Below are positions 2,975-64,000 of a DNA stretch of 64,000 nt, piece after piece. The notes beneath the pieces were generated by a model. The model saw nothing but the letters and a program-made list of their open reading frames with translations. It made no database searches and had not been told where the DNA came from. Origin of the DNA: Clostridia bacterium (GTDB lineage: Bacteria > Bacillota > Clostridia > Peptostreptococcales > JAAYPU01); NCBI GenBank assembly GCA_028279945.1, contig JANQMT010000006.1:26091-90090 (forward strand), written 5' to 3'. The position numbers and the translations under genes are program-made. Positions within the stretch are counted from its first letter, which is position 1. Each line of letters opens with the position of its first letter.

Positions 2975-3039
2975 ATTTAAAGATTTAAGATATTAAATTG
3001 AAGGAAGGTTATGCTAAAGCAAAATCTTCTTTCAATTTT

Positions 3040-3119
3040 GTAGGGTTGGGTCCCCGTGCCCAACCAAATCCCAATGGCCTCACATACAATGAGAGAGCGA
3101 CCACAGAGAGTACTCCTAC
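3040..3119. repeat. GTAG-family REP doublet between convergent genes
   Basis: GTAG-GGTTGGG-TCCCCGTG-CCCAACC at 3040-3065, plus an inverted degenerate copy ending CTCCTAC at 3119. A near-identical copy lies at 45139-45164. Confidence 0.7.
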
Positions 3120-3134
3120 ATTTATATACATATA

Positions 3135-4517
3135 TCAAGTAATGGAATACTTCTCCATCTTCCTCTTCAAAGTAAACCTACTAATCCCTAAAATTGCAGA
3201 TGCCTTTGTCTGATTCCAATCCATCTTCTCTAAAGCCTCCAAAATATATTGTCTTTCTATACACTGCATTTTATCCTCTAACGACAGCTGATCACATTCT
3301 GAAACATTTTGATTTAAATTTTCTTGTACAGCCACCATACGTAACTTATAATTTTGAATCTCAATAGGCAAATGATGGGTCTTAATATGATCATCATCAA
3401 TTAAGATCACAATTCTTTCAATGACATTTCTTAATTCCCTAATATTACCCGGCCAATTATAATTTAACAACTTGAATTTTACCTCTGAATCATAACCTAT
3501 AATTTTCTTTTTGAATTTTTTATTAAACCTATCTAAAAAATACTGTGTGATCAGTAATATATCAGTGCCTCTTTCACGTAGAGGAGGCAGGTCAATAGGA
3601 ACGACATTGATGCGATAATATAGGTCTTCTCTGAACTCCTTATTTTTTACCGCTTCTTCTAAATTTTTATTGGTAGCTGCAATGATTCGAATGTCAACTT
3701 GAATATCTTCTAATCCACCAATTCTTCTAAACTTTCTTTCCTCTAGGAAACGAAGTAATTTCGTTTGAATATCCAATGGCAGTTCACCCAATTCATCTAA
3801 AAAAACGGTACCCCCATCAGCTATTTCAAAAAGTCCTTTCTTTTGAGAAACAGCACCGGTGAAAGCATTTCTTTCAAATCCAAACAACTCACTTTCTACC
3901 AAGTGATGCGGTATGGCACTGCAATTAATTCTGACCATGGGTGATGACTTGCGAGGGCTGTTATTATGCAGTGCTTCAGCAATCAATTCTTTTCCGGTAC
4001 CCGTTTCACCTCTAATGAGAATGGTAACATCATCATTTTGGGATAGGGGTTTGATTTTCTTTAAGATTGTATTCATCTTTTCACAATGACCAATAAGATT
4101 TTCTCCTGAATGCTGCTTTTCTTTTTCTAATAAATAAATCTTATTTTTCAGCTTAAAATTCTCAAAAGCTCTAGCAATAACAATCCTAATTTGCTCTAAT
4201 TCAAAAGGCTTGTTGATGTAATCATAAGCCCCTTTCTTTATGGCTAAAACAGCACTTTGGATATCGCTGTAAGCGGTCATAACAATGACTTCTATTTCTT
4301 TATCCAGCTTTTTGATATCATCAATCAAATCAATACCATTTTCATCCCCCAGCTTCATATCTGTCAAGACAATATGGGGGTTAAAATTTTGTACTAAGCG
4401 CAATGCTTCAGTACCTGATTCAGCGGTACAGACATGGTAGCCAAAGTCACTTAACCCTGCATCCAGTGATTTGCATATCATTTTTTCATCGTCAATAACT
4501 AAAACTCTAACCTTCAT
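3135..4517 (-). CDS. sigma54-dependent response regulator (NtrC/AtoC family)
   Basis: REC domain (IDDE...D...K), GETGTGKE, GAFTGA-like NAFTGA, DELGE, WPGNIREL, C-terminal Fis HTH. Confidence 0.95.
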   Translation of the reverse strand: MKVRVLVIDDEKMICKSLDAGLSDFGYHVCTAESGTEALRLVQNFNPHIVLTDMKLGDENGIDLIDDIKKLDKEIEVIVMTAYSDIQSAVLAIKKGAYDYINKPFELEQIRIVIARAFENFKLKNKIYLLEKEKQHSGENLIGHCEKMNTILKKIKPLSQNDDVTILIRGETGTGKELIAEALHNNSPRKSSPMVRINCSAIPHHLVESELFGFERNAFTGAVSQKKGLFEIADGGTVFLDELGELPLDIQTKLLRFLEERKFRRIGGLEDIQVDIRIIAATNKNLEEAVKNKEFREDLYYRINVVPIDLPPLRERGTDILLITQYFLDRFNKKFKKKIIGYDSEVKFKLLNYNWPGNIRELRNVIERIVILIDDDHIKTHHLPIEIQNYKLRMVAVQENLNQNVSECDQLSLEDKMQCIERQYILEALEKMDWNQTKASAILGISRFTLKRKMEKYSIT

Positions 4518-6249
4518 GGTGCTCCTCCGTATAGATGGGAAAAAGAATTCTCAACTTTGTTCCAACATCTTTAATGCTTTCTATCTCTATTTTTCCATTA
4601 TTTTCTTCAATTAAACTGGATACGACAGACAGCCCTAAGCCTGTACCCTTTGATTTTGTTGTGAAGAATGGATCAAATACTTTTTCGACAATTTCAGGCT
4701 CAATACCAATACCATTATCTGTAAAAGCAGTGGATACAAACGGAACATTGTCCAGTACGGTATATTTCATTTCAATATCAAGCCTGCCGTTTTCCATCAT
4801 GGCATCGGTGGCATTAGTGATGATATTAATAAATATTTGCTCGACTTGATCTTTGTCTACCAATACAAAGAAAGGGGTATCAGCAGCCTTCATTTTCACA
4901 CTTATTTTTTTCTGATGCATCCCTTTATGAGTTAAATCCAAAGCTTTTTTTAAGATATCCATGATGCTGGTCACTTCATAATTGGTTTGTTTTGGTTTAG
5001 AAAAATCCAAAAGCTCAGTAATGAGATGGTTGATTCTATCGATTTCATATGTGATACCATTGACTAACCCAATACTAGAGGTATCCTTACTGGTATTCAT
5101 CCGATTTTTGATTACCTGAATACTTGTTTTGATCCCTGTGAGAGGATTACGTATCTCGTGGGCTAGTCCTGCGGCAAAGTTGCCCACAGAGGCCAGACGA
5201 TCCACTCTTACGATATTATTTTCCAAGGTCTTTCTTCTGGTAATATCATTAAAACTGCATATGGCACCTTTAATCTGGTGATCCGTTTTTAATAAGGAAG
5301 TACTGACATCCAAGTAAATGGTTTTGCCGCCATTTGAAGCCAGCTTTATAGCAATAACAGTATTGATATTTTTATCTTCTTTTATGGTTTGAAGTATTTG
5401 GTCATTTAGCGGCTTATAAATATCATCATAGTTATAGTATTCAAATATCTTTTTGTCGGTATGATTAACAGAGACAACGCCGGCATTTTTATCAGTGGTC
5501 ATAATACCTATATAAACATTTTCTAATATGTCTTCATTAAACTTTTTCATGTAAATGAGCTCGTCTGTACTGGCATTTAACTGGTCAATCATACGATTAA
5601 ACGCGTTGGCCAATACACCTATTTCATCACTTCTATTAATCTTAATCTTTTCTAGATTGTTAATTTCAATGGTTTCACAAACTTCAGCAAACTTTTTAAT
5701 AGGCTTAGAAATACTGTGCGCAATAAAAACAATCGCCTGCATGGCGATAACCAAAAAGATAATGGCCATAAGCAGAATGTATTTTTGTATATCCAGCAAT
5801 TCATCTAAGAAATAAGTTTTATCAATGCCCAGAATAATAGTCCAACCCCACGGCTCATATGAATCAAAATAGAAGGTCATATGATCATTTTCAAGAGTTT
5901 GAAGATTGGCATCAATTTTAGGTATTAAGCTTTCATCATCCTCATTAAAATGATTCATGATAAAAGTTTCATTTTCAATTACAGCCATATTTTCTTTATT
6001 GACCTTGTTAAAATATTGAATAGCCTTCTCTTTGCCTTCATCTATCGTCATATATTTATTTCCAATATCCTCATCAACCATTTCTATATAAGTCATGATT
6101 TCTGTAAAGGAAGCTTTTAAGTTTTTGGTTTTATGGTTCATAAGAAGTTGATAGCCGTTTAAATAGGATACAATTCCAAGGATGGTTATAGGCAGTATGG
6201 TCAATATCATAAACGGGATTAATATTTTGTTTTCAATATCCAACTTCAT
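4507..6249 (-). CDS. Sensor histidine kinase (2 TM, extracellular Cache-like, HAMP, PAS-like, HisKA, HATPase)
   Basis: H-box AHEIRNPL, N-box NIITNA, DNGIG, FDPFFTTK, GTGLGL; HAMP DEIGVLANAFN. Confidence 0.95.
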   Translation of the reverse strand: MKLDIENKILIPFMILTILPITILGIVSYLNGYQLLMNHKTKNLKASFTEIMTYIEMVDEDIGNKYMTIDEGKEKAIQYFNKVNKENMAVIENETFIMNHFNEDDESLIPKIDANLQTLENDHMTFYFDSYEPWGWTIILGIDKTYFLDELLDIQKYILLMAIIFLVIAMQAIVFIAHSISKPIKKFAEVCETIEINNLEKIKINRSDEIGVLANAFNRMIDQLNASTDELIYMKKFNEDILENVYIGIMTTDKNAGVVSVNHTDKKIFEYYNYDDIYKPLNDQILQTIKEDKNINTVIAIKLASNGGKTIYLDVSTSLLKTDHQIKGAICSFNDITRRKTLENNIVRVDRLASVGNFAAGLAHEIRNPLTGIKTSIQVIKNRMNTSKDTSSIGLVNGITYEIDRINHLITELLDFSKPKQTNYEVTSIMDILKKALDLTHKGMHQKKISVKMKAADTPFFVLVDKDQVEQIFINIITNATDAMMENGRLDIEMKYTVLDNVPFVSTAFTDNGIGIEPEIVEKVFDPFFTTKSKGTGLGLSVVSSLIEENNGKIEIESIKDVGTKLRILFPIYTEEHHEG

Positions 6250-7712
6250 CTTGCATCACCTAGTCTTTTATATGTGTGTGAACTTATGACATAAAACAAT
6301 ATAAATGCAACAATCAAACTGGGGAATACAGGATGAATCAAAGATTTATTAAAGGGACTGTTTATGTCAATAAAATAAAATATGAATAAGGCGATTATAC
6401 CGCCAATAGACGATAATACAGCCCCTTCTTTTGTAGCCTTTTTCCAATACAATCCTCCGTAAAGAGGAAACAAGAAAGATACTGCGAAAACACTCCAAAC
6501 ATAGCTGCCATAAATCAATAAAGTTTCCGGTGGATTAATGGACATCAACAACGAAATGGTCCCTGATATGAATATAATCACTCTGTTTAAGTTCAGGAAT
6601 CCATCATCATTCATATCTTTATTAAAAATATTTTTATAAATATCATAGCTAAAGCTGCTGGCCAATATCAATAATTGAGAATTAGCTGTAGAGATAGCTG
6701 CAGCCATAATACTGATAAAAATAAAACCACTTACTTTGGAGTATATCCGACTGTCAATAATGTACGGTAGTACTTGGTCAACGGAATGAATAGAGCTGAT
6801 GGAAGGTTCTAAAACTCTTGAACCGATACCAATAATGATTAACCCTAGATACAACAGGCCTAAAGCAAAGGCTGAAATGCATATCATCTGTATACCTGTT
6901 TTTTTACTTTTAGCAGATGATATACGAATAATATACTGAGGGTTTGCAGCAGTACCTAAACCCCATGCAAGGCTGGTTGTCATAATCATTAATGGACTAA
7001 ACAGATGATTAGCAGAGGGGTCTAAGAGTGCACCTTTTGTAATAGAGGGCTGAAATTTGGGCAAAGATTCTATAACAGCAGCCCGTTCGTGCATCAAAGT
7101 AATGCTCCCAATATCCTTAACAATATATACAGCGGTAATCAAAATACCGATTGCTACCAGCATAAAGTTAAGCTCATCTGTTTTGGAAACAGAAAACAAC
7201 CCGCCAAAGCTTGTATAGACCACAAATAAGTATATTAAAAAAATAGCAATGCTGTAATCAATATCTAATAGCTCAGATACCACAATGCCAAAGCCTTTAA
7301 TTTGAATAATAATATACAAGATGTAACATATAAAAATCGTCAAACCGGTTAAAGCTTGATAGTATTTGCTGTCATAGCGTAATCTAAAATATTCCGGAAT
7401 GGTGACAATATCATAGGATTTGATTTTATAAGCGATAAAGACTAAGCAAGAGGCACCTAATAACCATCCAACCACAGAGTATAAGATTGTCGAATAACCA
7501 AAAGCATAAACAGAACCGGTTACGCTTTGCATGGATACCGCACTAAACCATGTAACCGTAAAAGTACAAACACTGGGCAAAAGACCAAGGCTGTTACCCG
7601 CAACGCAGAAATCTTTAATGTTGTTGGTTTTTTTCATGCCGTTTTTACCTAGCAATAAAAGAATGATGGTGTAAAAAGTAAAGTACAGCATATAAATGAT
7701 GACTCTATTCAT
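6246..7712 (-). CDS. Sodium:solute symporter (SSS/SLC5) family protein
   Basis: Many TM helices; DFCVAGNSLG, TIPEYFRLRY, YTSFGG, AAAISTANSQLL, GLYWKKATKEGA. Stop overlaps the kinase start (ATGA). Confidence 0.9.
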   Translation of the reverse strand: MNRVIIYMLYFTFYTIILLLLGKNGMKKTNNIKDFCVAGNSLGLLPSVCTFTVTWFSAVSMQSVTGSVYAFGYSTILYSVVGWLLGASCLVFIAYKIKSYDIVTIPEYFRLRYDSKYYQALTGLTIFICYILYIIIQIKGFGIVVSELLDIDYSIAIFLIYLFVVYTSFGGLFSVSKTDELNFMLVAIGILITAVYIVKDIGSITLMHERAAVIESLPKFQPSITKGALLDPSANHLFSPLMIMTTSLAWGLGTAANPQYIIRISSAKSKKTGIQMICISAFALGLLYLGLIIIGIGSRVLEPSISSIHSVDQVLPYIIDSRIYSKVSGFIFISIMAAAISTANSQLLILASSFSYDIYKNIFNKDMNDDGFLNLNRVIIFISGTISLLMSINPPETLLIYGSYVWSVFAVSFLFPLYGGLYWKKATKEGAVLSSIGGIIALFIFYFIDINSPFNKSLIHPVFPSLIVAFILFYVISSHTYKRLGDAR

Positions 7713-7839
7713 TGTCTTTCTCCTTTTTGTTTAATATTAGGGCTATAATGGTAGGAAGACAAACGGCAAAAACAAACAAACCACCCACTATGATGAAAGT
7801 ATCCAAAGGAAGTCCCATAATTAAGATTTCTTCTTTCAT
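7705..7839 (-). CDS. 44-aa single-TM symporter accessory peptide (not in ORF track)
   Basis: MKEEILIMGLPLDTFIIVGGLFVFAVCLPTIIALILNKKEKDNE*. Hydrophobic helix plus charged tail; stop overlaps the SSS start. Confidence 0.75.
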   Translation of the reverse strand: MKEEILIMGLPLDTFIIVGGLFVFAVCLPTIIALILNKKEKDNE

Positions 7840-7872
7840 AAACACCGTTCCTTATTTTTATAAAATCAAACA

Positions 7873-7895
7873 GTAGGGGCGTATCGCACACACCC
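7873..7895 (+). repeat. Degenerate GTAG-family REP
   Basis: GTAGGGGCGTATCGCACACACCC: GTAG tail plus imperfect palindrome. Confidence 0.5.
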
Positions 7896-7998
7896 GAAAT
7901 TAATAAATATAATACCATTTCAATACTACTCCAATATTCTACATTTTCAAAGCATTTCCTTTAATTTTTTTCAAATAAAGGTTGAAAAATGAAGCTTT

Positions 7999-8056
7999 TG
8001 AGCGATTTTGAACAGTTGTATCAAAATCGCACACTTTAACTGTTCGATATTGCACC
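7999..8056. promoter_or_regulatory. Putative sigma54-activator binding sites (UAS)
   Basis: TGAGCGATTTTGAACA (7999-8014), its near-inverse TGTATCAAAATCGCACA (8017-8033) and TGTTCGATATTGCACC (8041-8056), 60-120 bp upstream of the -24 box. Confidence 0.6.
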
Positions 8057-8115
8057 AAATAAAAAACCAATCAACAAAAACATAATAAAATCAATGCTTT
8101 AGTATTGGTCTAAAC

Positions 8116-8131
8116 TGGTATTATTATTGCA
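8116..8131 (+). promoter_or_regulatory. sigma54 (-24/-12) promoter
   Basis: TGGTATTATTATTGCA = GG-N10-GC. Confidence 0.7.
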
Positions 8132-8141
8132 AATAGAAATT

Positions 8142-8246
8142 GCAAGTATCAAAAAGAACACTCATTGTGGCAAACAATGGTGCTCTAATTCAAATTTCCG
8201 TTACATTTCCAAGGGCTTCTTAACTTGATTAGGAAGCCATCTTTTT
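8142..8246 (+). ncRNA. Candidate sigma54-dependent small RNA (or terminated leader)
   Basis: Starts at the expected +1 of the sigma54 promoter. 5' hairpin AGAACACTCATTGT-GGCAA-ACAATGGTGCTCT, single-stranded TTTCC-rich linker, terminator GGCTTCTTAA-CTTGA-TTAGGAAGCC-ATCTTTTT. No ORF with an RBS. Confidence 0.5.
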
Positions 8247-8460
8247 GCTGGAACAACTCGCATACGCCTCAAACATATTATGCACTCCTATCCCAAAATA
8301 GTTTTCGAGGCACTGTTAGACTAAACTCCAATTTCTCTCTAAAAATAGCAAAAAAAAAGAAAATATCTGGCAAATACTTGTTTATTTTATTATATCCATA
8401 TAGTATAATTGAAAGGAAATACAAATTCGAGGCGTTCTATATAAAGGGGGATGTACAAGC

Positions 8461-10746
8461 ATGAAAAGAAGAATGTCAATTATTCTAGTCGCAATGCTGA
8501 TTATGTCTATGATACCTAGTTTTGCATTTGCGGTAGATTTACAAGATGAAGCTGATCGATTGGAAAAAGTATTTGCTAAATTAACAGATGAGGAAAAAGC
8601 ATATCTATCCAGTGCTAAAGCAAAAATATATGATTTAGCACAGGATGCTGAAAATGATGTTTGGGACGATGTATTTGAAAAGGTTCCTGTAACAAATGAA
8701 GCTTTCAAAGATGTATTTGGTAGTCCAGAGGAAGCTGAAGAATTTGTCAGAGATTTCATTTCAGAATTTACAATGATATACTTTACAGGTTCGGATGACT
8801 TAGCAAAGGAGTTAGAAGATTTTATAAAAAAACACAAAGAAAAGTTTACTGATATATTCAAAAGTGATGGTGAGGATCTTTTACGTGATTTGCATGAATT
8901 AATGTTAGGTGCTTTGGATGACCCCGATGAGTATATAGACTATTCCGATATGCTTCTATTATCTAATGCTAAAACAACTTCAGATTTAATTGAAGAAGTC
9001 AAAATGCTTTTAAAAGAAGCTGTAAGTGAAAAAGCAGAAGTAAAGGGCAATATTAAAGAGCAATTGGCTTCCGTAGGTTGGGAAGCTGGAAAAATCGTTG
9101 AAGCAGTATTTATCCTACTTGAAGCTGCTGATCCAGATTTAGATGCAAGTTTAGCATTAGCCAATGCTTTTGTCAGAAGCAATGGGGAACTGGTATCTGG
9201 TAATACAAAACCAAAAGTAGGACAAGAAACATCATATACTGTAAGTTTTTTTGAAATAGAAACCGATTATGTAAAATTCGCACTTGCCGATTCAAGTGAA
9301 GGTGAAGGCAGCTTTTCGGGAGATAAATTTACACCTTCTAAAGAAGGTGAAGCAACAGTCTATGTTTATAGAAGAGGAGTAGATCCTGAAAATGAAGCTT
9401 TAAATTATATATTTAAGTTCGATATTAGTATTAAGAGCGATGATGACGATGATGGTGGCGGTTCAGGAGGAGGGTCACCTCCAGAAGAAAAGCCTCCAGC
9501 CTCAGATACTGTAAAAGAAGTTGGTAGCGATAGTATTGAAACTGAAGTTAAAAAAGTAGATGGTCAGAACGTAGCTGAAGTTTCAGTGGATGATGATGCT
9601 ATTAAAAATGTAGTTGAAGAAAGTGAAGAAGGAACAACGGTTGTTATTAATGTTGATGCAGATGCAGATGTTGTTCAAGCTGGATTTGGCGGAGATATGA
9701 TTTCTTTGATGGAGAAGAATGATATTTCCATATCTATTAAGACAGAAACAGCTTCCTATAGCGTACCGGCAAAAGACTTGAATATTAGTGCGTTAGCCAA
9801 AGAATTGGGAGAAAATGTAGAGGTTTCTGATGTACAAATCTCTATAGTCATTGGCCAACCTACTGCTGAAGAAATCAAAGTCGTTGAAGATCAAGCTGTT
9901 AAGGCTGGGGTTCAGTTAGTTATACCGCCAATTGAATTCAACGTGGTATGTACGGATGGAGAAAACAGTGTAAAAGTAAGCAAATTTAATAGATTTGTGG
10001 AAAGAAGCATAAAAGTTCCCGAAGGTGTTGATCCAAAAACAATCACAACTGCTGTTGTTCAGGATAAAAAAGGCAATTTGACCCCTGTTCCAACTGAAGT
10101 AGTGAAAATAGATGGTGCATACTATGTCAGAATCAAGAGTATGACAAACAGTGTGTATACAGTAATCAATAATATTAAAAAGTTTGCAGATGTTGCCAAT
10201 CATTGGGCTAAAGATGATGTAAACGATATGGGATCAAGATTAATCATCAATGGTGTATCGGATACAACTTTTGAGCCTGACAGAGATATCACCAGAGCAG
10301 AGTTTATGACAATTGTTGTAAGAGCACTTGGAATCATGAGAAGCGGCGAAGGTGTAGATGCATTTGATGATGTAAAAGCAGATGATTGGTATTATGATGC
10401 AGTATCTATTGCTAAAGATTATGGTTTAACCAATGGAAACGGCGATGGTACATTTGCTCCAAATAGTAAAATAACAAGAGAAGAAGCTATGGCTATAATC
10501 GCACGAGCTATGAAAATGGCAGGAATGGATACAGCTGTAAATGCAAGCGAAATCAGTACAGTGCTAAGTACATTTGTTGACAATGGTAATGTATCTGAAT
10601 GGGCAAAAGAATCTGTTTCAGCATGTGTTAAAAACGGTATTGTAGGCGGTTATGCCGGAAAAATATCTGCTAAAAACAATATTACAAGAGCAGAATGCGC
10701 TGCTATCGTAAAACGAATGCTGTTTAAAGCGGATTTGATAGATTAA
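8461..10746 (+). CDS. S-layer homology (SLH) domain surface protein
   Basis: Signal peptide, acidic helical N-domain, DDDDDGGGSGGGS linker, three C-terminal SLH repeats (FADVANHWAK, ITRAEF, ITREEA, ITRAEC). Confidence 0.92.
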   Translation: MKRRMSIILVAMLIMSMIPSFAFAVDLQDEADRLEKVFAKLTDEEKAYLSSAKAKIYDLAQDAENDVWDDVFEKVPVTNEAFKDVFGSPEEAEEFVRDFISEFTMIYFTGSDDLAKELEDFIKKHKEKFTDIFKSDGEDLLRDLHELMLGALDDPDEYIDYSDMLLLSNAKTTSDLIEEVKMLLKEAVSEKAEVKGNIKEQLASVGWEAGKIVEAVFILLEAADPDLDASLALANAFVRSNGELVSGNTKPKVGQETSYTVSFFEIETDYVKFALADSSEGEGSFSGDKFTPSKEGEATVYVYRRGVDPENEALNYIFKFDISIKSDDDDDGGGSGGGSPPEEKPPASDTVKEVGSDSIETEVKKVDGQNVAEVSVDDDAIKNVVEESEEGTTVVINVDADADVVQAGFGGDMISLMEKNDISISIKTETASYSVPAKDLNISALAKELGENVEVSDVQISIVIGQPTAEEIKVVEDQAVKAGVQLVIPPIEFNVVCTDGENSVKVSKFNRFVERSIKVPEGVDPKTITTAVVQDKKGNLTPVPTEVVKIDGAYYVRIKSMTNSVYTVINNIKKFADVANHWAKDDVNDMGSRLIINGVSDTTFEPDRDITRAEFMTIVVRALGIMRSGEGVDAFDDVKADDWYYDAVSIAKDYGLTNGNGDGTFAPNSKITREEAMAIIARAMKMAGMDTAVNASEISTVLSTFVDNGNVSEWAKESVSACVKNGIVGGYAGKISAKNNITRAECAAIVKRMLFKADLID

Positions 10747-10776
10747 TAATATTATAAATGTTGAAAAATGTTGAAA

Positions 10777-10812
10777 AAAAAGGAAAGATTCCAATAGGAA
10801 ATCTTTCCTTTT
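10777..10812 (+). terminator. Rho-independent terminator
   Basis: AAAAGGAAAGATT-CCAATAGGA-AATCTTTCCTTTT. Confidence 0.75.
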
Positions 10813-10877
10813 CTAATTGTATAATACATATTATTGTGCTAAAATGAGTGGTATAGGTGTGTTTCAAGGAGGATTTT

Positions 10878-12509
10878 ATGAAGAAAATTATAATATCTTT
10901 GGTTTTAGTAATGTTTTTTGTCAATTTTTCGTATGCGTCAAGCTATCAGGATATATATGATTCTATGAAAGATGATTATCCTGAACTTGTTAACAGAATG
11001 TTAGAATATGGAGTAACTGAAAAAGAGATATTTAACTTTCTAGATGATTTGAGTGATGAAGTCGATAACGCCTCAGATCTTACAGAAGAAAATTTTAATT
11101 CTATTATGTATAAGGCTGTAAAGGAACTATTGTATGTGATCGAAGATGGAAAGTTTATTGTAAAAGATAAGCATGAAAATTTTGCTTATATGTTGCTTGA
11201 TGAATTTGGTTTAGAAATATCACAAGCCTTAGAAACCAAAACTCTTGAAGGAGATCTTAAAGGTTTGAATGAATCTGTAAGATCAGTTCTTTTAGACCAA
11301 GAAAATAGTGATGGCGGAGCAGGTGGAGGAGGCGCAGTATCAGAAGAACCAGATGAAATAATTCTAGATGAAATAATAATGGATATGGATACTTTAAATA
11401 TTCCTGTCAAGACCCTTTCAGATGGTCAAATACAAATAACTATTTCTCAAAATGATATTTTAAAAAATATTAACAAAGAACTAAATGATGTTAGTGACAA
11501 AGGAGGAACTGTATCTGATAGTTTATGTGGCATATTAGATTTAAGATTAGATAAAGACGAAAAATCTTATAAAGTTCAACTACCTCCTCTAACAGAAATT
11601 TTTAATAAAGTAGATAATTTATCTATACTTACTGACTTAGGCGGTATAACAGTTGAAAAAGACTTTCTTACTGAGGAACAATCAAATAGTAATCTCAATT
11701 TTATAATATCTCAAGATATTAACGTATTTGATGTTCAATTGGCAGATGAAAGTCAAGAAATCAACTCATTTTCAAAGCCTGTAATTTTATCATTACCTTA
11801 CAAATTATTGCAAGATCAGAATAAAGAATATGTGACAGCTGTATATATTGACGATAATGGGAATGAGATACCTATGGGAGGTATCTATAACGACGGAAAT
11901 ATTAGATTCTATACAAGCCATTTTTCAAAATATAAAGTAGTTTATGATTTAAAGTCATTTACAGATACATCAGAGATTGATTGGGCTAAAGATAAAATAG
12001 CAGCCCTTGCTTCCAAAGGAATCATCAATGGAAGAAGAGAAAGTATATTTGATCCTAATGCCTACATCACAAGAGCAGAATTTACAGCACTTGCAGTAAG
12101 GGCTATGAAGCTGCAAGGAGATAAAGCAATCAATCAATTTCCGGATGTCAGTTTAGATGTATGGTATGCAGACAGTGTGGCAGCTGCTTATCAAAATGGC
12201 ATTATAAAAGGAAGAACTGTTACTACTTTTGACCCTAACGGTAAAGTGACCATTGAAGAAGCATTGGTCATATTAGCAAGGATTATGAATACAAAAGGCT
12301 ACCCCAAAGTAGATTATTCTGAATTAGAGCAGACTATGGATGAAGACAATATATCTGAATGGACTAAATCCGAAATAGGAACAGCTCTAAACAGTAACCT
12401 ACATAAAGATATACCGGTAATCGATCTTGTACTAAATCAATATGCAACTCGTGCACAAGTAGCCAGTGTTATATATGAATTTTATAATAAAATTCTGGGA
12501 GAGAATTAG
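10878..12509 (+). CDS. Second SLH domain surface protein
   Basis: ATG after AAGGAGG; signal peptide; GGAGGGG linker; HFSKY motif; SLH repeats (FTDTSEIDWAK, ITRAEF, ATRAQ). Confidence 0.9.
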   Translation: MKKIIISLVLVMFFVNFSYASSYQDIYDSMKDDYPELVNRMLEYGVTEKEIFNFLDDLSDEVDNASDLTEENFNSIMYKAVKELLYVIEDGKFIVKDKHENFAYMLLDEFGLEISQALETKTLEGDLKGLNESVRSVLLDQENSDGGAGGGGAVSEEPDEIILDEIIMDMDTLNIPVKTLSDGQIQITISQNDILKNINKELNDVSDKGGTVSDSLCGILDLRLDKDEKSYKVQLPPLTEIFNKVDNLSILTDLGGITVEKDFLTEEQSNSNLNFIISQDINVFDVQLADESQEINSFSKPVILSLPYKLLQDQNKEYVTAVYIDDNGNEIPMGGIYNDGNIRFYTSHFSKYKVVYDLKSFTDTSEIDWAKDKIAALASKGIINGRRESIFDPNAYITRAEFTALAVRAMKLQGDKAINQFPDVSLDVWYADSVAAAYQNGIIKGRTVTTFDPNGKVTIEEALVILARIMNTKGYPKVDYSELEQTMDEDNISEWTKSEIGTALNSNLHKDIPVIDLVLNQYATRAQVASVIYEFYNKILGEN

Positions 12510-12511
12510 TT

Positions 12512-13225
12512 TTGAAGATTATAAAAAAAGTTTTAATCGTAATCTTAGCATTAGCTTTACTATTGTTTTTAGCGTATAAAATATGGGTTGCCAATGATGA
12601 AGACAATCAAATATATATTGAGGAGACGAGAGAAGAATTAGAAAACTTTGAAAAGGACCTCATGGAGAATATTGAAGCAGATAAGACAGATGAAAAGAAA
12701 AACGATGAACCAATTGCAGAAACCGATAATACAAAGGAAGATAATGATGAACAAATCGTAGAAACAAATAATACAAATGAAGTTGAAAATGATGAACCAG
12801 ATGAAGAGATAGACAGCAATATAGAAAATAAAGAACAAGCTGAAGAAGAAACTGAGAGTAAAAAAGAACTCTCAGAAATACAAAATATATATGATGATGC
12901 TCTCAGTAATCTAGAAATAAAAGCAAATCAATTATTAGAAGACCTAATTTCACAAGCAAAAACAGAATATTCCAACCTTTCTTCGGAAGAAAAGGAATCT
13001 TGTGCAGTATTGTCAAAAATGGCATCCGATTACTTAAATAGATCAAAAGAGCTGGAGAACCAAATCGATGAAATATTTTATAACCTTTTATCTAAGATGG
13101 AGGATGAATTAATTGCTAATGACTTAGATAAAAGCATTATAAAACAATATGAAGACGATTATGGTGCAAGAAAAAAAGCTAGAAGAAGAGAGCTTATGGA
13201 AAAAGCTTTAGCAGCACAAGAATAA
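12512..13225 (+). CDS. Membrane-anchored acidic helical hypothetical protein
   Basis: N-terminal TM helix, E/D/N-rich linker, coiled-coil-like C-terminus; TTG start 2 nt after the upstream stop. Confidence 0.75.
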   Translation: MKIIKKVLIVILALALLLFLAYKIWVANDEDNQIYIEETREELENFEKDLMENIEADKTDEKKNDEPIAETDNTKEDNDEQIVETNNTNEVENDEPDEEIDSNIENKEQAEEETESKKELSEIQNIYDDALSNLEIKANQLLEDLISQAKTEYSNLSSEEKESCAVLSKMASDYLNRSKELENQIDEIFYNLLSKMEDELIANDLDKSIIKQYEDDYGARKKARRRELMEKALAAQE

Positions 13226-13257
13226 CTATAACTCAGTTGTAAGTTCAGGGGGACAAT

Positions 13258-15222
13258 ATGCAAATGAAAGTTAAGGTTTTATCATTATTAGGATTAGATG
13301 TGTTTTTATTGCATCTATCCTATTTTTTGGCTTTTTTATTAAGATTTGATGGTCAAATACCTATGGACTATTATCAAAACTATAAAGAAATTATGGTGGT
13401 GTTAATAGCCATTAAAGTAATCACCTTTTTCTTTTTTAAGCTCTATAAGAGCCTTTGGCGTTATGCCAGCATTGAAGAGCTTCTTAATATCTGCATATCA
13501 GTAGTTCTTTCTAATTTGGTGATTATTGCCACAATTAAATTGGTACATTCTAGCTATTTACCAAGAAGTATATATCTAATCAGCATCTTATTAGACCTTA
13601 TTTTTATTGGAGGTGTTCGCTTTACTTATAGAGCATTACGAAGATATAAAATTAAGGATATTCTATTAAAGAATACTGCTAAAAAAAATGTCCTTGTGGT
13701 TGGTGGTGGTTCAGCCGGTGCCACTGTTGTAAAAGAACTTCGAATACATAATGAGTTAAACTTAAAAGTTATAGGAATCATAGATGATAATACTTATAAA
13801 CACGGTCAAAGAATTAATGGTGTAAAAATACTAGGGAATCGTTTCCAGATAGCTAAAATAGTAGAAAAATATAGAGTGAATGAAATTATAATAGCTATAC
13901 CCTCAGCTCCCCAAAATACTATTCGAGAAATTGTGGATGAATGCAAATCGACAAAGGTAAAGGTTAAAATTCTCCCTGGTGTTTACGAACTTATAGATGA
14001 AAAGGTCACCGTTAACCAAATCAGGCCGGTTAAAATAGAGGACTTATTAGGAAGGGAAACAATACAATTAGACAATCACGCAATTGATGAGTATATAGAA
14101 GGAAAATCTGTCCTTGTGACAGGTGGCGGTGGGTCCATAGGCTCTGAACTTTGCAGGCAAATAGCAAAATACAACCCTAGAGAACTAGTTATTTTAGACA
14201 TCTATGAAAACAATGCCTATGAACTCCAAAATGAATTAAACCGAACTTACAATAAACTTGGCTCAGATAACCAACTTAATTTAAAAGTGATGATTGCTTC
14301 GGTAAGAGATATTGATAGGGTTGATCAAATCGTCTCTACTGTGAGGCCAAATATTATTTTCCATGCAGCAGCACACAAACATGTCCCTCTTATGGAAGAT
14401 AACCCTTGTGAAGCTGTGAAAAACAATGTTTTGGGCACGAATAATATGGCTAAGGTTTCACACAAGCATGGGGTGGAAAAATTTGTATTAATATCTACAG
14501 ATAAGGCAGTCAATCCAACAAATGTGATGGGTGCTACAAAGAGAATGTGCGAAATGATCGTTCAATCCTTTGATACAGAAAGTAAAACAGAATTTTCAAT
14601 TGTTAGATTTGGAAATGTTTTAGGCAGTAATGGTAGTGTTATACCTTTGCTTAAAAAACAAATAGAAGAAGGTGGCCCTGTAACTGTTACTCACGCGGAA
14701 ATCACTCGATACTTCATGACCATTCCAGAAGCAGTCCGGCTAGTACTCCAAGCAGCGACTATGGCCTGCGGTGGCGAAATCTTTGTCTTAGATATGGGTA
14801 AGCCGGTGAAAATTATGGATTTAGCGAAAGATTTGATCAAATTATCAGGGTTTCAACCAGGTAAAGATATCCAAATCGAAGTAACAGGTCTTAGGCCAGG
14901 AGAGAAACTCTATGAGGAGCTATTATTAGATGAAGAGGGGATCCAAAAAACCTTACATGAAAAAATTTACATAGGGTCACCACTATCGGTAGATTTTGAT
15001 TCTATCCAAAATAGTATCAACTTGTTTAAGACTATTACAAAGAATCAGAACTCAGAAGCAGTCATAGATGAGCTTAAGAGAGTAGTTACAACTTATAAAT
15101 GTGATAAAGAAATTAATGATCTTTACATATATCGTAAATCTAAAGGAAGTAAACAAGAAGGAGCTTATAAGAAGACTGGTGAGAGTGTTGTTGAGAGGAA
15201 GTTGGAGGAAGTTGTGGTTTAG
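13258..15222 (+). CDS. capD: Membrane-bound UDP-GlcNAc 4,6-dehydratase (CapD/PglF/WbpM family)
   Basis: Four N-terminal TMs, IEDLLGR, GGGGSIGSEL, HAAAHKHVP, STDKAVNPTNVMGATK. Confidence 0.92.
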   Translation: MQMKVKVLSLLGLDVFLLHLSYFLAFLLRFDGQIPMDYYQNYKEIMVVLIAIKVITFFFFKLYKSLWRYASIEELLNICISVVLSNLVIIATIKLVHSSYLPRSIYLISILLDLIFIGGVRFTYRALRRYKIKDILLKNTAKKNVLVVGGGSAGATVVKELRIHNELNLKVIGIIDDNTYKHGQRINGVKILGNRFQIAKIVEKYRVNEIIIAIPSAPQNTIREIVDECKSTKVKVKILPGVYELIDEKVTVNQIRPVKIEDLLGRETIQLDNHAIDEYIEGKSVLVTGGGGSIGSELCRQIAKYNPRELVILDIYENNAYELQNELNRTYNKLGSDNQLNLKVMIASVRDIDRVDQIVSTVRPNIIFHAAAHKHVPLMEDNPCEAVKNNVLGTNNMAKVSHKHGVEKFVLISTDKAVNPTNVMGATKRMCEMIVQSFDTESKTEFSIVRFGNVLGSNGSVIPLLKKQIEEGGPVTVTHAEITRYFMTIPEAVRLVLQAATMACGGEIFVLDMGKPVKIMDLAKDLIKLSGFQPGKDIQIEVTGLRPGEKLYEELLLDEEGIQKTLHEKIYIGSPLSVDFDSIQNSINLFKTITKNQNSEAVIDELKRVVTTYKCDKEINDLYIYRKSKGSKQEGAYKKTGESVVERKLEEVVV

Positions 15223-62647: not shown

Positions 62648-62663
62648 TGCAAAAATTATACCA
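62648..62663 (-). promoter_or_regulatory. sigma54 (-24/-12) promoter
   Basis: Minus strand TGGTATAATTTTTGCA = GG-N10-GC. Confidence 0.8.
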
Positions 62664-62863: not shown

Positions 62864-64000
62864 CTATTTTGCATCTATGCCATAACGCTGCATTTTACGT
62901 ACGATGGTAGGCTGGCTGACACCAAGGGCTTTAGCGATTTGACGGGTTGTCTTATATTTCTCTGCAGCATTTTTTATAATTTGCTTTTCTGTTTCATCTA
63001 ATGCCTTCTTTAGATTCATAATAGGAGATAAGGTGATTTCACCACCAGGGCTTCTGGTATTTTCAAATATATAGGAAGGTAAATTATCTGGAAGTATGAT
63101 GGTTCCTTTTGTGGTGATGATGAGTCTCTCTATAATATTTTCCAATTCTCTGACGTTACCGGGCCAGTGGTATTTAATAAGCATAGCAATGGTATTGGGA
63201 TCTATTCTTTTTTTCTCATTAAACTTCTTATTATATTTTTGCAGAAAATGTCTTACCATAGGAATGATATCTTCTTGTCTTTCTCTAAGAGGCGGTATAT
63301 TAATAGGAACAACGTAAAGACGGTAGTATAAATCTTCTCTGAATTTCCCCTCGTTAACCATGGATTGAAGATCTTTATTGGTAGCTGCTATAATTCTAAC
63401 GTTAACAGAAATGGTATCGACACTTCCAACACGTTGTATTTCTTTGTCTTGAATAACTTGAAGAATTTTGACTTGTAAGTGCAGAGGCAATTCAGCAATT
63501 TCATCTAAAAAGATAGTACCGTCTTGAGCCATTTCAAAGAGGCCTTTTTTTCCGTCTTTTCTGGACCCTGTAAAAGCACCGGGTTCATATCCGAACAATT
63601 CGGATTCTAATAGATTGTCGGGGATGGCGCCGCAGTTAACTTTAACAAAGGGGTGATTTTTGCGTTTACCGGTTTCGTGAAGGAGCTTAGCCACAACCCC
63701 TTTTCCCACACCGGATTCGCCTGTAATCAACACTGTAGAATCAATTTGTGCTAACCTTTTAGCCAATTGTATCACATTATACATGGTAGGGCTGTTGGCA
63801 ATGATATCACCAAAAAATACTCTCTTCTGGGATTTTAATTCATCCAAAGCCGTTTGCACATCTTCTATTCTATTCTTTAATTGAATAAGCTCTGTAATAT
63901 CTCTAGACGTACTGATGATTTTTTTAATCTTTTTATTTTCATCAAAGATAGGCGTACCTGTTGTTAACAGTTTCTTTCCTTCTACATTACTATGGAGGAT
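62864..64000 (-). CDS. PAS-domain sigma54-dependent activator (5' truncated by window edge)
   Basis: Frame is open to 64000 with a PAC motif (TGTPIFD...SRDIT); GESGVGK, GAFTGS, WPGNVREL, TyrR-like HTH. Confidence 0.93.
   Translation of the reverse strand: MLHSNVEGKKLLTTGTPIFDENKKIKKIISTSRDITELIQLKNRIEDVQTALDELKSQKRVFFGDIIANSPTMYNVIQLAKRLAQIDSTVLITGESGVGKGVVAKLLHETGKRKNHPFVKVNCGAIPDNLLESELFGYEPGAFTGSRKDGKKGLFEMAQDGTIFLDEIAELPLHLQVKILQVIQDKEIQRVGSVDTISVNVRIIAATNKDLQSMVNEGKFREDLYYRLYVVPINIPPLRERQEDIIPMVRHFLQKYNKKFNEKKRIDPNTIAMLIKYHWPGNVRELENIIERLIITTKGTIILPDNLPSYIFENTRSPGGEITLSPIMNLKKALDETEKQIIKNAAEKYKTTRQIAKALGVSQPTIVRKMQRYGIDAK

Follow-up and report, generated by a model that had tools for sequence, protein, structure and literature searches.

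A transporter-associated sigma-54 two-component system of Clostridia that has probably lost its adjacent target

A stretch of 64,000 nucleotides from contig JANQMT010000006.1 of the Clostridia bacterium assembly GCA_028279945.1, hereafter referred to as the window, was analyzed with respect to a minus-strand operon encoding a small membrane peptide, a transporter of the sodium:solute symporter (SSS) family, a sensor histidine kinase and a sigma-54-dependent response regulator, as well as a divergently oriented sigma-54 promoter that is followed by a short, terminated stub. Based on the comparison with related loci, the locus represents a transporter-associated sigma-54 two-component system that lost its adjacent target.

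Genes and regulatory elements of the locus

The four overlapping minus-strand genes described in the original prediction agree with the open reading frames (ORFs) and the Pfam assignments (Table 1), and the ORF list gives overlaps of 11 nt between the regulator and kinase genes, 4 nt between the kinase and SSS genes and 8 nt between the SSS and peptide genes. The regulator possesses the features of NtrC-class activators, namely a receiver (REC) domain (Response_reg, E 4e-27), a Sigma54_activat domain (E 2.5e-69) with a GAFTGA-type loop, an AAA_lid_14 domain and a C-terminal HTH_8 domain (E 3.9e-13). Its sigma-54 contact loop reads ERNAFTGA; the N-AFTGA form was found in 43 of 55 orthologs, EKNAFTGA alone in 38. 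The protein is AtoC/NtrC-like, scoring below every NCBIfam equivalog cut-off, and rpoN is present in the genome. For the kinase, the Pfam domains HAMP, HisKA and HATPase_c were obtained. The transporter matched PF00474 with 172 bits (cut-off 22.8), covering profile positions 1-406, and TIGR00813 with 177 bits, slightly below the cut-off of 184; its orthologs were detected at 40-74% identity in 60+ loci.

The peptide consists of one hydrophobic helix and has no family match in Pfam or NCBIfam. Since a strain variant lacks one base at position 7840, which is tolerated only by an ATG start, its start codon was placed at ATG 7839 and not at GTG 7845 of the ORF list. Based on tblastn, the coupled 44-aa ORF was found in 31 of 66 related loci, and the small upstream ORF is regarded as a genuine gene. 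The role originally proposed for it, similar to that of the small peptide CbrX of Pseudomonas, is a fair analogy.

Table 1. Features of the two-component locus and of the divergent promoter region, with positions in the window.
Feature	Position	Strand	Basis or remarks
Sigma-54-dependent response regulator, 460 aa	3135-4517	-	REC, AAA+ and HTH_8 domains; Pfam and NCBIfam scans
Sensor histidine kinase, 580 aa	4507-6249	-	Transmembrane helix (TM) 1, ~125-aa outside segment, TM2, HAMP, HisKA, HATPase
SSS family transporter, 488 aa	6246-7712	-	PF00474, E 2.5e-50
44-aa single-helix membrane peptide, translationally coupled to SSS gene	7705-7839	-	ORF, tblastn, strain differences
Hairpin in leader of peptide-SSS operon, terminator-like, weak T-run	7877-7895	-	Terminator scan
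Enhancer, three 14-bp quasi-palindromic units	8000-8013, 8019-8032, 8042-8055		Repeat search, genome-wide unit scan
-24/-12 sigma-54 promoter TGGTATTATTATTGCA	8116-8131	+	Pattern scan; aligns with permease-gene promoter of relatives
Stub RNA of ~105 nt, predicted as non-coding, with 5' hairpin, U/C-rich linker and terminator	8142-8246	+	Start inferred from promoter position
Intrinsic terminator: 10-bp stem, 5-nt loop, T-run (hairpin 8214-8238, T-run to 8246)	8214-8246	+	Terminator scan

Divergent to the operon, three sites resembling upstream activating sequences had been predicted together with a -24/-12 promoter and, about 105 nt further on, a terminator, and all of them were found again by motif and terminator scans. 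The 14-bp enhancer unit, which in some genomes forms a perfect palindrome, follows the consensus G-[AT]-[GT]-C-[GA]-N5-G-[CA]-[AT]-C. In the promoter, GG and GC are ten bases apart within TGGYAY-N5-TTGCW, the repeated sites are located 70-150 bp upstream, and the arrangement is orthologous in relatives. The -24/-12 pattern matched three times in the window vs. 0.44 matches expected, and two terminator-like sites were found vs. 0.5 expected. The three-unit layout is common to the window and its closest relatives, and the unit motif recurs before the promoters of the pxp operons of distant relatives described below. Enhancer and promoter are regarded as genuine, since orthologous loci have retained their sequence as well as their order and spacing. 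No -24/-12 element directed toward the peptide-SSS operon was observed in the window.

The predicted stub RNA folds better than its shuffles (z = -2.67) and contains no plausible ORF. Within positions 7000-9500 (E <= 10), no Rfam family, including CrcZ, matched near its gathering score, and only chance-level matches to eukaryotic snoRNA and miRNA families were obtained. A search for RNA sequencing runs containing the stretch returned none.

The module in related Clostridia and its usual targets

In total, 66 related loci were compared, which originate mostly from Peptostreptococcales-type Clostridia and include members of the Anaerovoracaceae as well as Natronincola, Anaerovirgula, Wukongibacter, Maledivibacter, Sedimentibacter, Acidaminobacter, Fusibacter, Tindallia and Geosporobacter; an earlier search over 40 relatives had found SSS orthologs in nine of them. 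The SSS, kinase and regulator genes occur together in 54 of the 66 loci, being colinear and tightly packed in 52 of these. Cultured species with the module include Sinanaerobacter chloroacetimidivorans, Anaerovirgula multivorans and Natronincola peptidivorans. Moreover, the orthologous enhancer and promoter precede a protein-coding operon by 13-160 nt in 54 of the 66 loci (53 recognized by script, one by eye). In 40 loci, the promoter is followed by a pxp-type operon (pxpA/LamB_YcsF, an NRAMP-like transporter gene, pxpB, pxpC and often DUF1445) and in 13 loci by the gene for a 460-aa membrane protein, usually accompanied by that for a CC/Se-motif protein of ~109 aa (NF041239, weak); the locus counted by eye, L073, was missed by the script since the match overlaps the promoter. 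The other loci are L070 of Fusibacter sp. 3D3, in which the promoter is followed by a transposase gene, L090 with a 34% match and no SSS gene at the threshold used, and ten loci that are cut short, incomplete or too distant (e.g., L063, with 574 nt after the regulator gene and no pattern match).

The recurrence of SSS, kinase and regulator genes with a divergent -24/-12 promoter, which had been proposed as a synteny check, is thus borne out, whereas a short terminated RNA after the promoter was found in none of the other related loci of the set. The original prediction had regarded a small RNA (sRNA) as the output of the system and had stated that a catabolic operon directly after the orthologous promoter would refute this view. 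Such operons are what the survey of the 66 loci revealed, and an sRNA as the purpose-built output of the locus is therefore considered unlikely. The original interpretation is hence supported in part, whereas the original observation is confirmed. The window locus shares with its relatives the colinear peptide/SSS/kinase/regulator operon and the 14-bp units, and it lacks an adjacent pxp-type or permease target operon.

The pxp target operon is present in most lineages, while the 460-aa permease is found in the closest relatives belonging to the Anaerovoracaceae. Permease-type loci, which include L014:5954-7693 (-), L015:10634-12390 (+) and 11 others, originate from Anaerovoracaceae-type genomes without pxpA. 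The 460-aa permease matched no Pfam or NCBIfam family; language-model features suggest, as a lead only, a resemblance to permeases of the DUF3360/BenE/xanthine-uracil type. Because the promoter drives the 5-oxoprolinase operon in most lineages, gene context indicates that the signal of the module is probably 5-oxoproline or a close analogue. According to bioRxiv 10.1101/2024.05.01.592088, kipOTIA of C. difficile encodes a functional 5-oxoprolinase supporting growth on 5-oxoproline. Literature searches returned no description of the module, nor any report of pxp genes being controlled by sigma-54, and the main text of PMC6615313 contains no mention of oxoproline, LamB or a symporter. In four Acidaminobacter-type loci of distant relatives (L076, L078, L082 and L084), a -24/-12 element was observed directly upstream of the SSS gene (~9927-9962), which suggests that the sensor operon itself may be under sigma-54 control there.

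The fixed order and the overlapping reading frames across several families argue for a functional link between peptide, SSS transporter, kinase and regulator. In an alignment of 16 kinase sequences, residues 5-33, comprising the N-terminus and the first membrane helix, contain ten invariant columns, and residues 34-135 contain none. This apparent conservation pattern is the opposite of that of a conserved ligand-binding domain. Furthermore, a complex was predicted from the SSS transporter and kinase residues 1-240, each represented by an alignment of 16 rows, together with the peptide. It yielded a score of 0.59, while the best of three controls scored 0.00. Of 80 solved complexes, 58 reached the mark applied to such scores, as did 2 of 110 mismatched pairs; scores of at most 0.60 among those reaching it belong to 7 of the 80 solved complexes and to both passing mismatches. 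The prediction runs agreed in at least 88% of contacts, and the partner had a pLDDT (predicted local distance difference test) of at least 72. The predicted complex lends weak support to a transporter-kinase contact. That the transporter may act as a co-sensor of the kinase, as originally suggested, is plausible in view of this prediction and of the invariant first helix.

For the module as a whole, the following mode of action is proposed. Peptide, SSS transporter, membrane histidine kinase and sigma-54 regulator would be co-transcribed as a widespread unit of Clostridia. The phosphorylated regulator would bind the three 14-bp enhancer units and activate the single nearby -24/-12 promoter, which would drive the 5-oxoprolinase operon in most lineages and the permease gene together with that of the small CC/Se-motif protein in the Anaerovoracaceae.

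The missing target and the origin of the stub

In 12 of the 13 close-relative loci, an AGGAGG motif and the permease start codon are located 40-70 nt after the promoter; neither is present in the window. Within the window genome, the permease ortholog (82% identity) was found on another contig, at C172:8771-10141. No enhancer unit, -24/-12 element or riboswitch was detected upstream of it. Instead, a hairpin repeat of ~175 nt (fold z = -6.3) is located at C172:8578-8750 (L025 ~1308-1480), directly before the ribosome-binding site (RBS) of the relocated permease gene. This repeat yielded seven blast matches of at least 150 nt, with the self-match and reverse matches of the palindrome counted, and many fragments, several of them at contig ends; it is classified as a dispersed element resembling miniature inverted-repeat transposable elements (MITE-like). 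Since the permease ortholog has moved to a different contig, where a MITE-like repeat and neither enhancer nor -24/-12 element precedes it, the promoter in the window appears orphaned.

For the 187-aa protein encoded after the relocated permease, homologs in the 66 loci were found only in the two closest relatives, where their genes converge on that of the regulator. Because these homologs flank the regulator gene there, C172 looks like the old neighbourhood, from which the operon with its promoter would have been separated. No pxpA, pxpB, pxpC, NRAMP-like or DUF1445 gene was found in the window genome. Correspondingly, PF03746 was detected in none of the three genomes of the same family that were searched (the window genome, G000, as well as G001 and G002) and in both of two genomes of another family. 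A related case is found in Fusibacter sp. 3D3 (L070:7973-9548), where enhancer and promoter are followed by a gene for a DDE transposase and no permease gene, while its sister species F. ferrireducens (L064) has the permease gene in this place. The orthologous promoter is thus interpreted as independently orphaned in Fusibacter sp. 3D3. A paralog of the permease (47% identity) was observed in the window genome at C162:3734-5050 (-), located after another gene, the product end of which we take to resemble 4-hydroxybutyryl-CoA dehydratase; a truncated sigma-54 activator gene lies at the end of the same contig.

In the intergenic region of the window, no remains of the permease gene or of the CC/Se gene were detected by tblastn. 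When the stub was locally aligned to the operons of relatives, scores of 19 and 21 were obtained vs. shuffle means of 20.6 and 20.5. A resemblance by eye of positions 8150-8180 to the RBS and start codon of relatives was not significant and was discarded. Likewise, interpretation of the terminator at 8214 as the displaced terminator of the VWA-domain gene located beyond the regulator gene was not needed, since the latter gene has its own hairpin and T-run after position 2974.

Based on these results, it is considered moderately probable that the promoter in the window is orphaned and that no function has evolved for its stub. A rearrangement in this genome would have parted the promoter from the permease gene, leaving enhancer, promoter and ~105 nt with a terminator. 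The stub is probably still transcribed upon kinase activity, and its terminator would shield the neighbouring S-layer/cell-envelope genes from this transcription. No conserved riboregulatory function of the stub is evident.

Several observations weigh against a stub devoid of function, and most of them favour its retention, after loss of the target gene, as a trans-acting sigma-54-dependent riboregulator, i.e., a young, lineage-specific exapted sRNA. The GG and GC of the promoter and the enhancer are intact, the family-typical sigma-54 contact loop has been kept in the regulator, and a strain variant in run X6 (8031 A>T) shifts the second enhancer unit toward the consensus. The three-unit enhancer is the only such cluster in the 5.13-Mb, 96.5%-complete assembly, and among 160 sigma-54-like promoter matches, paired units were found only at the window promoter, which is thus the only recognizable target of the regulator in the assembly; without it, an intact two-component system would have no output. 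Strain differences are synonymous in 14 of 15 cases in the SSS gene and in both cases in the peptide gene (together 16 of 17), from which purifying selection is deduced for these two genes, the only ones of the operon covered by the count. No other plus-strand gene ends upstream of the terminator at 8214-8246, and the stub is apparently not a simple deletion scar, since it has no significant similarity to the operon or terminator of relatives. Its anatomy, comprising a 5' hairpin, a single-stranded U/C-rich linker and an intrinsic terminator, along with the fold score given above, is sRNA-like, a terminator preceding the first gene was found at only 5 of the 157 sigma-54-like sites of the genome, and the genome encodes Hfq and CsrA. 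Two other sites combining a sigma-54 promoter and a terminator without a gene within 400 nt (on C38 and C87) are antisense inside coding regions and were rejected as chance matches. Finally, a contig piece from run X4 covering 8080-8282 has 0 differences in 203 nt, while three flanking pieces have 24 differences in ~770 nt (~3%), nine of them in the intergenic region 7846-7999. At the flank rate, ~6 differences would be expected in 8080-8282 (Poisson probability of zero ~0.002), which hints at constraint on promoter and stub; this evidence originates from another study and comprises one short contig of ~3x depth and possibly mixed strains.

Retention as an sRNA is nevertheless considered rather unlikely. 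The stub has no second copy elsewhere in the genome and no homolog in the 66 related genome loci or in 22 metagenome loci, the metagenome scan having returned no locus above 72% identity. In a target scan by duplex energy against 4079 crude gene starts, for which shuffled seeds were run over a quarter of the genes, the best real energy of the 32-nt linker (-25.3) equalled the best of the shuffled seeds (mean -24.8), so that no target exceeded the shuffled seeds; duplexes of the whole RNA were dismissed as meaningless long pairings. Among the gene starts, the permease ranked 1532, its paralog 2373 and the neighbouring gene for an S-layer homology (SLH) protein 1187, and 53% of shuffles equalled the energy of -10.8 kcal/mol that the linker reached when paired with the SLH leader. 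Equally tentative is the full scenario in which a mobile-element-associated rearrangement removed the permease gene, selection then acted on enhancer, promoter, leader and terminator, peptide and SSS transporter co-sense through the invariant first helix of the kinase, and the ~105-nt riboregulator replaces the catabolic operon. If true, a birth of an sRNA via promoter orphaning would have been caught in the act in Clostridia.

Two further explanations concern the junction with the downstream genes. The sigma-54 promoter may have been captured by the SLH/cell-envelope cluster from 8461, controlling it via partial read-through of the terminator, with the stub acting as 5' leader or attenuator. 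The SLH gene is on the same strand and begins 215 nt past the terminator, a consensus scan revealed no plus-strand sigma-70-type promoter in 8250-8460, and termination may be incomplete since the T-run starts 3 nt past the stem. This explanation is regarded as very unlikely, however: a perfect TATAAT at 8404-8409 could be part of the SLH gene's own promoter, hairpin and T-run form a good terminator, no antiterminator-type alternative pairing stands out, and no relative ties the regulator to envelope genes. A chimeric join between promoter and envelope cluster in the metagenome-assembled genome, in which case the permease gene would truly follow the promoter, is conceivable for an assembly of 214 contigs with 5.7% estimated contamination, and a contig from run X3 breaks at 8238-8272. 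Such an artefact is, however, extremely improbable, since a 31.7-kb contig from run X2 (possibly the source of the DNA) covers 7000-9500 without differences, the X4 contig bridges promoter, stub, terminator and 36 further nt without the RBS and permease start of relatives, and the permease on C172 has its own, different upstream sequence.

Regarding the neighbourhood, a second near-consensus -24/-12 element was found at 805-820, with an inverted repeat of another type, TGTACAAAA ... TTTTGTACA, upstream of it at ~694-721. It precedes the genes for a MoxR/MadB-like AAA ATPase (925-1773) and a VWA-domain protein (1778-2974), and the region 694-2974 represents the target of a different activator, convergent on the regulator gene. 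Between the VWA and regulator genes, a GC-rich palindrome of ~30 nt (~3038-3070) with at least eight other places in the genome at >=90% identity is classified as resembling repetitive extragenic palindromic (REP) elements and marks one border of the operon block. Apart from the two-component operon, this stretch is occupied by plus-strand genes, and the sign of the GC skew flips at ~3000 and ~8000. On the other side, the products of 8461-15222 (+) comprise two proteins with SLH domains (761 and 550 aa), one of 237 aa without family and a CapD-like enzyme (Polysacc_synt_2). Toward the distal end of the window, another activator gene (~63302-63805) and a -24/-12 match (62648-62663) were observed on the minus strand. 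With ~64 sigma-54 activator genes in 5.1 Mb (70 PF00158 matches, the weakest few being partial or other AAA proteins), the repertoire of the genome is unusually large.

Comparison with known systems

In the CbrX-CbrA-CbrB-CrcZ system of Pseudomonas, CbrA combines an SLC5 transporter domain and a kinase in one polypeptide, with a STAC domain linking the two, and the direct target of CbrB is the sRNA CrcZ. The window locus resembles this system in that the gene for a small membrane peptide is translationally coupled to that of an SLC5/SSS transporter and that a kinase signals to an NtrC-type sigma-54 activator. For Pseudomonas, translational coupling of cbrX and cbrA (PMC6591292) and binding of CbrX to the SLC5 domain (PMC13488458) are reported. 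In contrast, the window transporter and kinase are separate proteins without a STAC domain (Pfam), the kinase possesses its own two-helix membrane anchor, an outside segment and HAMP, and the normal output of the family is a catabolic or transport operon and not an sRNA, with no CrcZ-like match obtained. Among solved structures, eight matched the SSS transporter at E <= 0.001; they are SSS proteins of the choline, glucose, urea and sialic type, and none of the chains is named CbrA. The window locus is not a member of the CbrXAB/CrcZ system, and the resemblance is architectural, as the original prediction had itself maintained.

The best NCBIfam similarities of the window proteins were to AtoC (440.6 bits) and AtoS (309.6 bits), far under the equivalog cut-offs of 714 and 646, respectively. 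The domain orders REC-AAA+-HTH_8 and HAMP-(PAS-like)-HisKA-HATPase correspond to those of AtoS/AtoC, and the enhancer located ~90 bp upstream of the -24/-12 element is shared with AtoS/AtoC and other NtrC-class systems. The window system differs in that it is tied to an SSS transporter and a peptide and that its targets are pxp genes or a DUF3360-like permease gene instead of ato genes. Transporter-dependent sensor kinases are represented by DcuS, acting with DctA or DcuB, and by BtsS and YpdA with their transporters. In these systems as in the present one, a secondary transporter is encoded or acts with a membrane kinase as a possible co-sensor; unlike them, the window proteins belong to other families, and the gene order is fixed, with transporter and kinase sharing one operon in which the transporter gene comes first.

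The 5-oxoprolinase operon of B. subtilis is ycsFGI-kipIA. It has, as does kipOTIA of C. difficile, the same gene set as the target operon of 41 related loci, whereas the window genome has none of these genes. For kipOTIA, the accessible part of bioRxiv 10.1101/2024.05.01.592088 states no link to a sigma-54 two-component system. With CrcZ, GlmY and Qrr, the window stub shares a -24/-12 promoter served by an activator of the NtrC class and a short non-coding RNA ending in a terminator, the latter being predicted in the window. The three named sigma-54-dependent sRNAs have known partners and occur in conserved form in several genera; in contrast, the stub is restricted to a single lineage, takes the place of a gene present in relatives, and no partner was found for it.

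Results obtained within this study describe a widespread regulatory module of Clostridia that is, as far as literature searches show, apparently undescribed and that appears to control genes for 5-oxoproline utilisation or, in the Anaerovoracaceae, a DUF3360-like permease. The module provides a split-gene counterpart of the CbrX-CbrA transceptor, in which the coupling of transporter and kinase could be dissected genetically. Furthermore, the window locus illustrates how a regulatory system may lose its target by rearrangement, and it represents a candidate, though not demonstrated, case of new sRNAs arising from orphaned promoters.

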